Below, piece after piece: positions 58,101-64,000 of a DNA stretch of 64,000 nt. Each line of letters starts with the position of its first letter. Within the stretch, counting starts at the first letter, position 1. The stretch lies in the NCBI RefSeq assembly GCF_029227855.1, contig NZ_CP074357.1. One strand, written 5' to 3'. The DNA is from Escherichia coli. GTDB taxonomy: Bacteria > Pseudomonadota > Gammaproteobacteria > Enterobacterales > Enterobacteriaceae. A program made the position numbers.

Positions 58101-61100
58101 GAACGGCCCACAGTGTCATCTCACCCAGCGTGTTGTCGTAGCGAAATTTTTGAGTTGGCAGCGTTCGGCTATTACCTGCGTTATCGAAGATAACAACTTT
58201 TGCAGTAAAGTCTTCATCCAGGTTGCTGTCTGGTATTCCGGTTCCCTTAACTGAATTCTTAGAGTAAGTGTGGTACATCTTTTGGCCGGATACGTCATAC
58301 TGCATCTGTGTAGTGCTGTAGAGGCTACCGTCCTGCCTGTAAATATATATTAGGCCCTTATCAATACCATTTGCATCACTTACGCCCGAAGAGGTGAAGT
58401 CATACTGCCCCGTTGCCTCTAATCCAAGCTTCCACACGTCACCAGCGGTAGAGCCAGAACCAGTATTAGCGGTAAGAGCATTTGCCGCTGGAGGGGTGAC
58501 ATCAATTAGCCAGTTATAGTTATAGGTCGCTACAGGCTTCTGATTGAGATCTAACACGTTTATCTGAACGACAAATTTGCCTTCACCCAAAGCAGGCAAA
58601 GTTACTTTTTTGCCGTAGAACTCACTACCGTCAGCAGCTGTTAGTCGGTCTGATACACCCGTCCGTGTAGTCGTAGTATTAAGAATGACAGTTCCAGTGT
58701 CTTTCGTGACTTTGACATTAACGAAACGATCAAGACCTGAAATAAGTGTCAAAGTTACCGGTGATGCCGGATTAAGCATAAGACGAGAAGACGGGGCGTG
58801 GATCTCAATACCGTTCGTGTCCTTAAAGGCCGATTCATATATCTGAGCTGGGGCCTGAACAGACATACCGAGTCCGGCTACAGCAGTAATAAAAGCGAGA
58901 TGTTTCATTCTTATTCCCCTTTAGGTTTGGTGTTATTTTAAGCTTTTCCTAAAGGTCACTATGTTCGTAAAAGTATAAAAAACTTCTCCATATGGTGCTC
59001 GAAATTACAAATCTATAATTTGCCTTTCGACAAACCTTATTGTGCGTTCAGGACGTAAATCTTTCTTTTTGGAATTACATCTGACATTGCTGTGGTATCC
59101 AAACTGGCAACGATTGCAAAACTTATAACATTAGCCTGAAACTATCGGCATCCACATATCGCATTAAGTGATGCTTTTACTTTGTGTAAAAAAGAATCAG
59201 GATAAATTAGGTATGACAGATATAAATGCGTTAACGGACGGCATATATGAATCAAAACCTGGCGGTATTACGCCACCAGTCGAGAGGGGAGTGAACCTCA
59301 GTCAGTACGTCTACCTTCGTTCCGCAAGGCGCTTCTTGTTGTGAATTACAAACTGCCCTGGCGAGAACTGCATCATTTCACCCCCAGCAACACACGTGCC
59401 TCTTCAACGGTTTGCCACGAAGGCATTGCTACGCCAGATTGACTGCCGTTGCCTCTGCGCTCACCGGTGTCACATTCTACATAAAGACGCATCAGCATCG
59501 CTTCTATTTCAGCGGCCCGGCTATTATCCATTACCAGTTCTGCTGCGCGTCGTAGCTGTTCTGGAATGTCATTCCACATTCCCGCACCACTTCTGTCTTT
59601 GTTAGTGAGCAAGTCTTCAATAGCAGATGAAGCCATGTTAAGCAGGTCAGCCGAAACTAAAGGCATCGGCGGGGCGGTATAGAGGATTCGACGTCTTCCG
59701 CGTCTGTCTGGATCGTATTTATCATAAAAAGCTTTGTTCACATCTTCCCAGTGCCACTGAAGTTGCCCGGTTGCGTCATGGTGGCAAAACTCGCACTGAT
59801 AAACAGGCGCAATCGACATAACTGCCTTTCCAATACGTGCCAGTACAGCAACTTCGTCAGCTCTAAGACTCATTGCTTCGCTTGGGTTACTACCCTCGGA
59901 AAATTCCAAAATTTGTTCAATACGTTCTGGTGTGAAAGTGGTCATAGGCTTTGAAAACATATTTTTTCCAGTTGTGCTTACCATATCATCAGGCCTTAAG
60001 AGCGTTAGCGAATAATTAACAGGTCAGGACCAAAACTAAATCCTTCCCCCATACGGTCTTCATGACGGGAGACATATGCCTTACCGTATTTCTCCAGATC
60101 CTGTAAGCGATCTTTTGCCAGATTCCACGAGTATTCCTGGCCCCACACGGGGCCGTCACGCCCGTCAAAGCGGTCAGGTTTACAATTTGCTTTCAGAAGT
60201 GCGTAGACATGCTCCAGCGTGGGTAGCTGCAAAGCACTATTAGCCTGAGAAACGGCAGTATGCGTCATTTCTGTTCACTCTTTATTGATTTAGTCAGTTA
60301 AGCCGGTCAGGTAACTTTAACCGGCTACTCGTATTAAGATTTCTTTCCGGTTGCTTGTCAGTTAGCGGCGAAGATCAATTTCAAGGCGGGCTGTTTTGAC
60401 CTTTGTTCCGGACTCCCTAAATGTATCATCCGGAAGAGGCGAAATTTGTCCGCCAAGTTGTTTGACTCGCTCCCTGAGCGCTTTTGTCAGTGTGTCTTCC
60501 CGGAACAATACCCCAGCTGACAGAATGGCCTGTAAGCGACCTCGCTTAGCGAGCATTGCGATGGCATGCATGACATGTTTAACGTCAGAGCGTTTAAGGA
60601 ATGGTGGATTCATAACGATAACATCAAAAGTTTCATCGGGCTGGTACCCAAGAAAGTCGGTATGCACCAGCTCGGCCCCTGTGCTAAGGACACTATCGTT
60701 CTTCACTGCAAGGAATCGCTCATCGTTCAATTCGATCCCGGTAATCAATGCATCCGGAGCCGCCAGTTTTAAGGCTTTCAGAATGCGGCCATCACCAAAC
60801 TCAGGCTCCAGAACACGTTCCCCGGCAGCTGGTTCAGCGCGTAGAACCATATCTGTGACTAAATTCTCAGGGGTAGGGAAGAAATTGAACAAATCACGTG
60901 GGATGTCGACCGAACCTGTCAGAATGATTTGCTCGATACGCTCAGCTGCATCCGCCGTAAAAATATGTGCCTGCTCTTTTCGGTTCCATTTGCCACCGGC
61001 AGCTTCCAGCACTTTGTTTGTCTTAACATAAATGCTGCGGTCGAGCTGGTCGGCCAGGAAAAGAAAGTTCCCTTCAGCACGGCAGCGAGATAAGACGTTC

Positions 61101-64000
61101 AGAACTTCAGTTGAGATTTGCATTAAAACTCCATTAAGAGGATTTACCCGCCTGGCGGCAGCGGGTTGGTTACTTAAACAGGACAATTCAGATTTGGCCT
61201 TGGTTAGTCGGCAGACAACAGCAGGGATGGGCTGTTATAAGCGAAGCGGTCAACGGGAGCCTTCTCAAATCGCTGACCGCTTGCATCAGGGGTCAGAACG
61301 AGTCCGTTATGGGCGCAATGAATGTGGAGCAACATATCCCCGCCGGTGTTGATGTGTAAGGCAGGCACACCCTGATCGATTTCGAACATGACACCAAAAC
61401 AGGGGTTACCTTCCTTGTTAACAACTTCACAGTGGATGTTATGTTGGCCGGTAACGCTGACCTGATAGGCCTGACTGTCCTCTTCTCTCAGTGTTTCCTC
61501 CTCCAGGCGCCAGTCCTGAAGTGTGAGGCTAATTTCAGGGGTATCATGCTCCTTCTGAAGAGCCTGGATACCTTTACGGAACAGCTGCATCATTTCATGA
61601 GTAAGGCAGTCTTCCTCAGCTCCAAAATGTTCTTTCCAGCCTTCAGGATCTGCATACATCCAGACGTTTTTAGCGAGCGAAGGTAAGGAAGCATCAGGCT
61701 CTACAAGGAGGTGAGGGATGCTCTCTTTGATTCCGAGATAACGTACTGGCTGGCCGTTAAGCGGTAACCCATCCGGCACTGTAACTTCAGCTCCTGGCAA
61801 GACGACGCTGTTTACCAGACCTCCACAATGTTCTGCCACCACCCGGCCTAAATCTGCCATAAACATCCGATGCTTTTCTGGTGAGTCCAGCTCACCAAGG
61901 AGTTCAGGTTTAAGCAGTAAACCGGTAATAATCTCAGTCAGTTCACGAGGAGATACTAATTTATACATTTTGTTTTCCTTTTCTGTGTTGGCTTTATATT
62001 AACAATCCAGATGCACGAGCTAATAACCTCCAGACAACTTTTTCAAAAATTATATACTTAAAGCAGGGGCTAATATGCGCAAGAAATGAATTTAGGAAGG
62101 ATGGCTTCAAATTTAACTTTTTGGTTTTTTATTTTAGACGGACTTTAAAATAGCATCGCTGGTAAAATAATAAACATGGTTTATTTTTTGTTTGTATTGA
62201 CAATCAAATGGGTAAAAATTAATTTACTTACATGGCGTATATTTAATGCCACCGTCCCGGCGGCACCGGGCATAAAAGGAAAACCATCTTGAAACCGATG
62301 CTCAAAAAAGATTTTTTTTCAGCTATTGAAAACCTTCTCAAAGCTGGCTTTCAACCTCGCTTTTACACTGTTAACAGTGGACGAATCGGTCTCATTACAT
62401 TCACTGATAAAAATGGAACAAAACAGGTCGAACAGGTTTATTCCTGCACTTCTTTAGCCGCCAATACTTTTGGAAAGCGCTTCACCACATGGTTAGAAGA
62501 AATTTTTCAAAAGCATAATGAAAAAAAAGTAGCTGATTCCGGGATCGAGGTTGGTAGCCGTGTCTGGGATAAAATGATGTATACGGTGCGCACCATTTCA
62601 GAAATTCGTGCTGGGGGGGTGCTGGTGCTGGATAACGGTGCACAGCGTACTCTGGATGAAGTTCAAAAAACGGCTCCTGAAGCAAACCAGGTAGAGCCAA
62701 AGGAAATCTCTTCACTTAAGGAGCTGCTGAACGCTTCCAAAAATCTGGAGCCGACTTCGCCTGAACTAATTGCGGCTCTTAATGAGGCTCAGTCAACCGC
62801 CATAAAACGGTGAATGCAACGGCAGTCTGGCACATCAGGCCTTGTCAGAGATTAGGCCTGAAAAGCACTTACGTACCGATATAACACCTAATTCCCCTTT
62901 AAGGAGATTGCCCTAAATGGCGATGAATAAAAAAGAACAAGCCGCCTATGATGAGCTGGTGGCACAGGCCAGAATAAACCGCGCTTTACGCTGGTCTGAC
63001 TATAGCGTTGAACGCGATATGCCCGTACCAGAGGTCTCGGGGGAATACCAAAACGGCTGGAGCTTCAACACCGCCACTGGCACTGTTTATCCGACATGGA
63101 GCGGAACTACGGTTCACGGCACACGGGAAGAGGGAGAGGTTGTCGATGCAACCTCCCGCCGCATGCGAGGCATGAATGGTAGCCAGAACGGCATACCACA
63201 ATACAGCACCAAAGAACGCGCCCTGAAGGCATTACGCTGTTCGCTTGAAATCAAGTTTGCTATGCAGCTGGATGCCGTAGATAAAGCAATCGCAAAAGAA
63301 TTAGAGTCGTCCACCGCTCGCCGGGAGAGCGATACCTCAGATGCCAAACGGTAAACCATCAAATCAGGCCCGTGATCAGAGGGGCCTTAACGCCCTGAAA
63401 GAGGCGGTTCCAGCGACGGCACAACTACAGATGCGGGTTACCCCTGATCGGAAACTGCGTTACGTCAATCAGGCAAAGGCCGAAGGCCTGGGTCTAACAG
63501 ACTGGGTCCAAAAGCATATGGATAACGTGTGTGATCTGGCAGGCCAGCCCGACACAACCATGTACAAAGATGATGGAGAAACAAGTGGCCAAAAATAACA
63601 ACAGTCTCAAACAGCATGTCTTCAATATGCTGTCGGCTGGCAGCGAACTTAAAGAAGTGAAGCGTTTTCTCACCAGCAAGCGCCTTAAAGCCCGCCCAGC
63701 AGTGTTAATGATCCACGAACAGGCGATTGCTGTGCAGAACACTGAGTACCTGAATAAACCGGCTTATAGCTAACTGGTAACAACAATTAAAGAGAGATAT
63801 TTAAAATGAGCGTAATCCCAGATTACACCAGGGTTCAGCATGTCCAGATTATTCGCGAGCGAGATGGGCAGAAGGAAGTTGTTCGAGTCTATGATGAAGA
63901 TGGCGACGTAGTTCTGTGTTTACCTGCCTACATTCAGGATGAGGAAATAAATCTTATTCTGCGCCGGTTGAATGACGTATATTCAGTCGGATATCGTGTA

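Follow-up and report, generated by a model that had tools for sequence, protein, structure and literature searches.

The window analysed here, a 64,000-nucleotide stretch of contig NZ_CP074357.1 from Escherichia coli, is IncHI2 plasmid backbone and is 100% identical to hundreds of sequenced plasmids, for example pAPEC-O1-R and pESA136_1; in all, 1090 plasmid records match the region at an identity of at least 95%. Four co-directional minus-strand ORFs lie within 59373-61968, a cluster that is part of the accessory backbone of the IncHI2 conjugative plasmid, and RefSeq has the same four genes on the identical plasmids. The features of the cluster, together with two other methylase genes of the window, are the following:

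38968..39801, minus strand: Dam-family adenine methyltransferase, D12 class, DPPY motif, the other methylase counted by the initial annotation
41561..43252, plus strand: 563-aa DUF4942 protein whose C-terminal ~215 aa are a homologous methyltransferase module
59259..59279, minus strand: terminator-like hairpin, 94 nt past the ORF-D stop codon; its 7-bp stem contains 5 GC pairs and is followed by GTTTTGATT
59373..59984, minus strand: ORF-D, 203 aa (RefSeq, 195 aa from the ATG at 59960), predicted prophage-type mosaic
60005..60268, minus strand: ORF-C, 87 aa, phrog_11469, an IncHI backbone gene found in IncHI1 too
60226..61200: methyltransferase cassette between ORF-A and ORF-C, without a blastn counterpart in IncHI1-type relatives
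60362..61123, minus strand: predicted orphan gamma-class N6-adenine methyltransferase, 253 aa from the ATG (274 aa from a TTG at 61186)
61204..61968, minus strand: ORF-A, 254 aa, predicted two-domain protein, an IncHI backbone gene
61969..62288: AT-rich divergent intergenic region of 320 bp between ORF-A and a plus-strand 174-aa gene, presumed promoter region

RefSeq starts the methyltransferase at an ATG (253 aa, WP_001167416), and a GGAG lies 8 nt upstream of this ATG at 61123; the coordinates 60362..61123 of the initial annotation are therefore right. The same annotation had described a four-gene operon. Its four co-directional genes stand, and their co-transcription is plausible, as predicted from the intergenic gaps of 80, 93 and 20 nt and from a single terminator-like hairpin, present solely after ORF-D, that likely is the end of the transcription unit (59279-59259). 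However, a search of the minus strand upstream of ORF-A (61969-62288) for a strong sigma-70 consensus gave no convincing candidate. Hairpins flanking the methylase cassette were also considered as cassette signals and discarded, as they fold no better than shuffled sequence (z -0.6 and -1.2).

Pfam N6_Mtase (PF02384) matches the methyltransferase at 27.4 bits (cutoff 20.4). In a sequence search of the PDB, M.TaqI was matched at E 1.4e-6, and the family profile matched M.TaqI at 8e-16 and the StySJI HsdM at 7e-15. The motifs follow the gamma-class order X (FFPTP), I (LEPEFGDG) and IV (VMNPPF), and they are invariant across the family alignment, including P107, G110 and N172-F175. The catalytic core is that of M.TaqI and type I HsdM, in which the motifs come in the same order (X, F-x-T-P; I, E-P-x-x-G-x-G; IV, NPPF/NPPY). 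In contrast to M.TaqI, which has a C-terminal target-recognition domain of ~180 aa, the IncHI2 enzyme has none: it ends ~78 aa past motif IV, and the alignment to TaqI does not extend beyond the catalytic domain. HsdM works with HsdS and HsdR partners, whereas the IncHI2 enzyme has neither and instead joins its TaqI/HsdM-like core to an unrelated, conserved N-terminal accessory domain of ~75 aa, for which no solved relative was found. Among the cluster and nearby genes, Pfam and PADLOC gave no HsdS-like specificity subunit; with NCBIfam included, there was no nuclease, ATPase or specificity-subunit match in the three neighbours or nearby genes, and no cognate restriction endonuclease was found among ORF-A, ORF-C, ORF-D and the flanking genes. 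We conclude that the second gene is, as predicted by homology only where its chemistry is concerned, a compact orphan gamma-class N6-adenine DNA methyltransferase, and that it stands alone as initially described, with neither a DUF4942 domain nor a nuclease or specificity partner nearby.

In NCBIfam this protein best matches models of PrmC (3e-8), Erm (6e-5) and the HemK family, in Pfam it also matches the MTS small domain, and the family profile reaches ErmAM, KsgA and METTL5 among the PDB entries. These matches could mean that DNA is not the substrate and that the enzyme acts on RNA or protein, such as an rRNA adenine N6 or a glutamine N5. The scores, however, are far under the family cutoffs (33 versus 199 bits for PrmC), and the best solved relatives, TaqI and HsdM, are DNA enzymes. 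In addition, PHROG and PADLOC group the protein with DNA methylases, and the family is one of phages and plasmids, where it is often part of giant DNA-handling fusion proteins. An RNA or protein substrate is therefore highly improbable.

A motif scan for (D/N/S)PP(Y/F/W/H) in ORFs of at least 120 aa returned three proteins in the window, namely Dam, the DUF4942 protein and the cluster methyltransferase, in agreement with the earlier count of the latter as the third N6-adenine methyltransferase. It had also been called a paralogue, which is true with respect to the 563-aa protein but not with respect to Dam, a D12/alpha-class enzyme that Pfam places in an unrelated family. BLASTP aligned the cluster enzyme to residues 348-515 of the 563-aa protein with 27% identity over 183 aa (E 8e-12), as expected from the proposed match to its C-terminal domain; VMNPPF is common to both and ITGIEL is matched by VTGIEL. 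The same module is represented by phrog_6263, whose positions 310-511 the methyltransferase matches at 1.5e-25, and the homologous ~180 aa include part of the pre-catalytic domain. Both proteins are orphans of the same plasmid, but they differ in genomic context (the 563-aa gene adjoins a ParB-like gene and dam), share low identity, and only the 563-aa protein has the DUF4942 domain (2.6e-22 in Pfam). IncHI2 plasmids carry at least four orphan methylase genes, the three in the window and a beta-class one ~10 kb further on.

Outside IncHI plasmids, a 187-aa IncF protein annotated as a class I SAM-dependent methyltransferase is 30% identical in the core (E 1e-20). Like the IncHI2 enzyme it is an orphan borne on plasmids, and its gene sits between DUF3560 and ssb in leading regions, near the anti-restriction and SOS-inhibition genes for ArdA, KlcA-like proteins and PsiB. 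It lacks the N-terminal domain, however, and the IncHI2 gene is far from ssb, psiB and oriT. The DUF3560 protein was tested as a separate copy of the missing N-terminal domain and showed no correspondence. Stand-alone homologues of ~245 aa occur among early or replication genes in Pararheinheimera, Pseudoalteromonas, Erythrobacter and Vibrio phages, and no restriction gene was found near those examined. They, for example gp05 of Pararheinheimera phage KLER1-1 and the enzyme of Pseudoalteromonas phage KB12-38, share the full-length architecture (N-terminal domain plus core) at 38-44% identity, but their replicons are phages, not plasmids, and ORF-A and ORF-C are absent from their neighbourhoods. 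The domain is also found within giant phage proteins.

The three neighbours had been reported to have no recognisable motifs. Indeed, none of ORF-A, ORF-C and ORF-D has a Pfam or NCBIfam match, but ORF-C, a small conserved protein, matches phrog_11469 at 4.6e-15, and ORF-D matches phrog_60/660 as well as lambdoid ead/Ea22-like and DUF551-type proteins. ORF-D shares its residues ~14-130 with N-terminal portions of prophage proteins of the DUF551/DUF550 type and its residues ~141-203 with the C-termini of ead/Ea22-like proteins, so that it reads as a mosaic of lambdoid-prophage modules. ORF-A is predicted to consist of two domains, an N domain of residues ~1-140, in which the motif C48-G49-G50 is conserved, and a C domain (~145-254) folded as a beta-meander. 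A model built from the 97-sequence alignment of an exhaustive profile search reached a pLDDT of 92, whereas that from a shallow 20-sequence alignment (pLDDT 53) was unusable; no structural relative of the confidently predicted fold is known. The family comprises 441 cluster representatives, in which the Cys-Gly-Gly and a Trp signature are conserved. Its members are sometimes fused to, or adjacent to, DUF5983, and no Pfam domain was detected in ten longer or fused relatives.

By blastn, homology to three IncHI1-type relatives (L017, L011 and L014) ends at 61201-61212 and starts again at 60225. The methyltransferase is thus carried by a cassette of ~975 bp between conserved ORF-A and ORF-C and is found in the IncHI2-like lineage only; IncHI1 plasmids keep ORF-A and ORF-C and have other genes, or nothing, in the methylase slot. 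Of 11 other contexts examined, nine (L005, L006, L008-L011, L014, L017 and L018) have ORF-A without the methylase, and elsewhere either DUF5983 genes or unrelated ones lie downstream of ORF-A homologues. The order ORF-A, methyltransferase, ORF-C recurs only in two diverged relatives (L004 and L007), at 46-67% protein identity. ORF-D is absent from both and is conserved nowhere outside IncHI2 among the contexts examined. The idea of a conserved functional four-gene unit must therefore be abandoned: the four genes are not a co-evolving unit, and the other three are neighbours of the methyltransferase rather than demonstrable partners. Since the two diverged relatives keep three of the genes in order at such low identity, there is some room for a functional link.

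These data also bear on the possibility that the genes constitute one restriction-modification or defence/anti-defence system, in which the methylase marks self DNA and ORF-A, ORF-C and ORF-D are effector or specificity components. Co-directional genes with tight spacing and a single terminator-like site after the last one, the gene order kept in L004 and L007, and the large, conserved and structurally novel ORF-A family would all fit such a system, as would a weak match of the methylase to the MADS component mad2. PADLOC models MTase_II, oMTase and mad2 match the methyltransferase and no other cluster protein, however, and the cluster was accordingly rejected as a defence system. MADS membership was rejected as well, because no other MADS model was matched and the mad2 match is partial (4.5e-14, profile positions 270-419 of 492; NCBIfam 14.7 bits versus 720). 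Further, no nuclease, ATPase, helicase or specificity domain was found in ORF-A, ORF-C or ORF-D, most ORF-A contexts are without the methylase, the methylase family stands alone in phages, the gene is a discrete DNA cassette relative to IncHI1, and ORF-D is not conserved. A single system of this kind is very unlikely.

The best experimental model of what orphan plasmid methylases do is provided by M.EcoGIX and M.BceJIII, single-strand-specific m6A methylases that are likewise orphans on plasmids and for which protection of incoming DNA from restriction has been proposed (PMC7736820). By analogy, the IncHI2 enzyme might act on single strands, being expressed in the recipient from the incoming T-strand and methylating promiscuously ahead of complementary-strand synthesis, a mechanism demonstrated for M.EcoGIX (PMC7736820). 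The absent target-recognition domain fits relaxed specificity, the nearest non-IncHI plasmid relatives adjoin ssb, psiB and ardA in IncF leading regions, and an ORF-A homologue adjoins psiA on one IncHI1B plasmid. However, M.EcoGIX and M.BceJIII are beta-class DPPY enzymes with a fixed orientation in the leading region, whereas the IncHI2 enzyme has NPPF, gamma order and no fixed orientation; being beta-class, M.EcoGIX is of a different family (PMC7736820). The cluster lies ~43 kb (pAPEC-O1-R) or ~49 kb (pESA136_1) from mobI and the presumed oriT. It points toward oriT in one of these two IncHI2 arrangements and away from it in the other, so that comparison of the two plasmids revealed no early-transferred position with fixed orientation. 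Since T-strand-templated expression requires a fixed orientation, and since the distance is 43-49 kb, early expression of the methyltransferase from the incoming strand is unlikely, and a hallmark of the best-studied plasmid anti-restriction methylases is missing. Overall, we regard an M.EcoGIX-like early-entry role as quite unlikely.

Orphan methylases such as Dam and CcrM are known to have regulatory roles, and the IncHI2 methylase could likewise regulate plasmid or host genes epigenetically instead of serving in anti-restriction, with the thermosensitive conjugation genes or the adjacent Ig-like protein genes as possible targets. The methyltransferase gene is surrounded by genes for conjugation-associated Ig-like proteins and adjoins RepHI2 (PMC6764697), and its location outside a leading-region position would also suit a regulator. 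No target motif or regulated promoters are in evidence, however; IncHI1 has the same conjugation biology without the methylase gene, and the occurrence of relatives in phages, both lytic and temperate, points to a function in protecting the DNA of the element itself. This makes a primarily regulatory role unlikely.

We favor the explanation, to which we give a probability of about 0.6 from the sequence evidence, that the orphan methylase cassette helps the plasmid to resist host restriction by self-methylation, with ORF-A, ORF-C and ORF-D as neighbours. A cassette of ~975 bp would have dropped between two conserved IncHI genes, and the four genes would probably be transcribed together from the AT-rich region (61969-62288) as far as the hairpin (59279-59259). 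The enzyme would bind SAM via LEPEFGDG and would flip and methylate adenine at NPPF as M.TaqI and HsdM do, by homology only, and the conserved N-terminal domain presumably provides DNA binding. Since there is no target-recognition domain, HsdS or restriction enzyme, and the N-terminal domain is the sole extra part, we infer a short or relaxed sequence specificity. Methylated in the donor or after establishment, and not from the incoming single strand, plasmid DNA would resist those restriction enzymes whose sites are covered.

Orphan methylases are a leading class among plasmid anti-restriction genes (PMC11541004, PMC7736820, PMC11602122). In the sole knockout test found in the literature, restriction was no higher after the dam gene of a plasmid had been deleted (PMC11602122), and searches on DUF4942, DUF5983, the RefSeq accessions and the IncHI2 methyltransferase or leading region yielded nothing specific to the cluster genes. 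Several orphan adenine methylase genes on one plasmid make an anti-restriction or epigenetic role a reasonable default. The modular function of this kind suggested by the initial annotation therefore gains from the distantly homologous modules and the several orphan methylases, and loses in that the neighbours are not a conserved unit.

A more speculative proposal concerns the neighbours. ORF-A and ORF-C may frame a conserved cargo slot of IncHI plasmids, in which case ORF-A could be a novel factor for plasmid establishment or anti-defence, acting together with whichever cargo is inserted downstream, here a methylase without a target-recognition domain and possibly of relaxed specificity; we consider this rather unlikely. 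An orphan methylase is an ordinary kind of plasmid gene and will not surprise a specialist, whereas ORF-A is mildly interesting. The by-product of most use is ORF-A, which defines a family of considerable size that is characteristic of accessory regions of plasmids and is a structural orphan.

IncHI2 plasmids are important vehicles of resistance genes, mcr-1 among them. If the methylase shields the plasmid from restriction, it would add to the broad host range of these plasmids, which includes Escherichia, Salmonella, Enterobacter and Klebsiella. Broad protective methylation would then have a second route beside M.EcoGIX, through a compact gamma-class enzyme devoid of a target-recognition domain.

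The window is part of an IncHI2 conjugative plasmid backbone. Around the four-gene cluster at 59373-61968, a 2.8-kb segment shares 100% identity with many plasmids already sequenced, pAPEC-O1-R and pESA136_1 among them; at ≥95% identity this segment matches 1090 plasmid records, drawn from Escherichia, Salmonella, Enterobacter, Klebsiella and other hosts. The four genes of the initial annotation are confirmed: four ORFs, all on the minus strand, fill 61968-59373, and the second encodes a methyltransferase:

61968..61204, minus strand: ORF-A, 254 aa
61123..60362, minus strand: methyltransferase, 253 aa from its ATG, as in RefSeq
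60268..60005, minus strand: ORF-C, 87 aa
59984..59373, minus strand: ORF-D, 203 aa (195 aa in RefSeq)

The methyltransferase likely starts at this ATG, which has GGAG 8 nt upstream. Gaps between the genes are 80, 93 and 20 nt, and the sole non-coding terminator-like hairpin with a T-run (59279-59259) lies 94 nt past ORF-D. From these features we infer that co-transcription of the four genes is plausible, yet the 320-bp AT-rich stretch preceding ORF-A yielded no consensus sigma-70 promoter on its minus strand. A 21-codon ORF (MMQFSPGQFVIHNKKRLAERR; 59312-59377, minus strand) begins at an ATGA that overlaps the stop codon of ORF-D; it could be what is left of a downstream module, for instance DUF551, or could have arisen by chance. 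On the other side, a divergent 145-aa protein (62917-63354, plus strand) matches phrog_28248, a phage family whose function is not known (E 1.9e-32); the adjoining 174-aa and 85-aa proteins gave no meaningful matches. The 806-aa neighbour (56488-58908, minus strand) is an Ig-like protein with DUF4165, Big_3_2 and Big_3_3 domains, and IncHI plasmids carry at least three such genes around RepHI2. A related one, RSP, is needed for IncHI conjugation (PMC6764697).

The best-supported mechanism, to which we assign a probability of about 0.6, is protective methylation: a compact orphan gamma-class adenine methylase, gained as a cassette and probably of short or relaxed specificity, would methylate plasmid DNA and so protect it. 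The methyltransferase (METHYLTRANSFERASE; 60362..61123) matches Pfam N6_Mtase at 27.4 bits (curated cutoff 20.4) as well as the Pfam MTS small domain, and M.TaqI was retrieved with it in a sequence search of solved structures. A family profile built from an eight-member alignment hit M.TaqI (8e-16) and, at 7e-15, the HsdM subunit of StySJI. Motifs X (FFPTP), I (LEPEFGDG) and IV (VMNPPF) follow in gamma-class order, with key residues that do not vary across the alignment. A non-DNA methylase, suggested by weak PrmC and Erm matches in NCBIfam, is the reading to which we give least weight; both matches fall far under their cutoffs, and a non-DNA substrate appears unlikely. The methyltransferase ends ~78 residues past NPPF and therefore, in contrast to M.TaqI, does not carry a TaqI-type C-terminal recognition domain. 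The only addition it carries is an N-terminal domain of ~75 aa that is conserved in the family (consensus ...GNxLxL...QLDRxLY..TNKVLEAAGGKWNRK.KAHIF...), for which the family profile found no PDB match. Searches of Pfam, NCBIfam and PADLOC found neither an HsdS nor an HsdR gene nearby, nor any other nuclease gene.

A motif scan found only three methylase-motif ORFs in the window. The duplicated methylase module proposed earlier is real: in BLASTP, the methyltransferase is 27% identical over 183 aa (E 8e-12) to the 563-aa protein at 41561, aligning with residues 348-515 of the latter, which comprise its catalytic core and part of the preceding domain. The N-terminal DUF4942 domain of the 563-aa protein is absent from the stand-alone enzyme. 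The enzyme at 38968-39801, a D12-class Dam-family protein with DPPY, is not a paralogue. The anti-restriction or epigenetic role suggested for the module is plausible, and an epigenetic regulator is the foremost, though still unlikely, alternative to protective methylation. Within 38968-43252, the Dam-family methylase and the 563-aa DUF4942 methyltransferase are grouped with a 387-aa ParB-HTH-like protein, with an IS66 insertion (43648-45960) just downstream. Of the two methylase neighbourhoods, this second one may resemble a leading region more closely. A fourth orphan methylase (416 aa, beta-class N6_N4_Mtase, weak Mrr_N match) lies ~10 kb past the window end in pAPEC-O1-R (L001, 24556-25806) and pESA136_1 (L003, 46856-48106), and IncHI2 plasmids therefore hold at least four orphan methylase genes.

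Full-length homologues, ~245 aa long and 29-44% identical, occur as stand-alone genes amid the early/replication genes of phages of Pararheinheimera, Pseudoalteromonas, Erythrobacter, Vibrio and other hosts, with no adjoining restriction gene. PHROG profiles also place the module inside giant phage proteins of 1,259-3,925 positions. The nearest plasmid relative outside IncHI is a 187-aa 'class I SAM-dependent methyltransferase' of IncF leading regions, 30% identical to the core (E 1e-20). Flanked by a DUF3560 gene and ssb, with ardA, psiB, a klcA-like and a ParB-like gene around it, this enzyme differs in not having the N-terminal domain. The DUF3560 protein, compared as a possible source of this domain, does not supply it. 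In plasmid leading regions, orphan methylases rank among the most prominent classes of gene (PMC11541004).

M.EcoGIX, one of these orphan methylases, has been demonstrated to methylate the transferred single strand and thereby protect the entering plasmid, but it is a beta-class DPPY enzyme of a different family (PMC7736820). That the present methyltransferase likewise acts early on single-stranded DNA is unlikely, given this difference and its position. In pESA136_1, arranged as the window, the mobI/MobH relaxase module and presumed oriT lie ~49 kb from the cluster, which is transcribed away from oriT; in pAPEC-O1-R, an inversion leaves the presumed oriT ~43 kb off and cluster transcription toward it. 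The inverted segment, between the relaxase module and the cluster region, is a ~20-kb array of small genes, all on one strand (PAPS reductase, HNH, DUF6012, DUF957, DUF3085, hok), with IS5 copies at its junctions. The inversion changed the orientation of the cluster relative to oriT. T-strand-templated expression requires a fixed orientation near oriT, which disfavours M.EcoGIX-style early entry.

We compared the downstream arrangement in 11 other loci encoding ORF-A homologues. The order ORF-A-methylase-ORF-C recurs in two diverged IncHI-like elements, L004 (52, 56 and 53% identity, respectively) and L007 (46, 67 and 62%), with ORF-D replaced in both. In pHCM1 (L017, IncHI1) and the related L014, a tandem pair of ORF-A paralogues precedes two genes of 40 and 113 aa, after which comes ORF-C, the methylase being absent; in L011 the slot between ORF-A and ORF-C is empty. 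DNA homology between the window and these IncHI1-type loci covers 62075-61201 and 60225-60004 with none between, so the methylase and its two spacers form a ~975-bp cassette. Distant ORF-A homologues are followed by a DUF5983 gene (L008, L009), fused through their N domain to DUF5983 (L010) or followed by unrelated genes (L005, L006); in L018, a frameshift-split homologue adjoins psiA on an IncHI1B plasmid. ORF-D itself is a mosaic: residues ~14-130 match N-terminal parts of DUF551/DUF550-type prophage proteins, and ~141-203 match ead/Ea22-like proteins at their C-termini. The four genes thus lie side by side but have separate histories and are not a co-evolving system; the 'four-gene operon' does not hold as a conserved functional unit, and an integrated multi-gene system is distinctly unlikely.

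Within the finding, only ORF-A is of some mild interest. It had no match in Pfam, NCBIfam, PHROGs or PADLOC; an exhaustive profile search gave 441 cluster representatives, 73 of them at E≤1e-30. Its N domain (~1-140) and C domain (~145-254) also occur apart and in other combinations, and ten longer family members contain no Pfam domains. Conserved residues are C48-G49-G50, W103, W111, D152-W153, G200, P202 and P227. In most plasmids of the IncHI1 type and their relatives, a second ORF-A paralogue, ~30-34% identical, lies in tandem directly upstream (L004 7051-7827, L006 5081-5848, L011 3844-4617, L014 3670-4443, L017 5075-5851); the IncHI2 window has a single copy. Fusion of the N domain to DUF5983 in some proteins (P0027; P0028, L010 6001-6900) and a separate DUF5983 gene right after the ORF-A homologue elsewhere (L008 6827-7315, L009 6842-7525) suggest a functional link between these two uncharacterised families. 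Plasmid regions with ORF-A homologues (L004 16574 onward; L005 10771-12485; L010 4452-5548 and 8353-12795) are rich in defence/toxin genes, including a SMODS/DncV-like nucleotidyltransferase, a Prok-E2_D and ThiF pair, RES-Xre, ART-PolyVal, a C5 DNA methylase and HipA. The methyltransferase, for its part, is an uncharacterised member of a well-known plasmid gene class.
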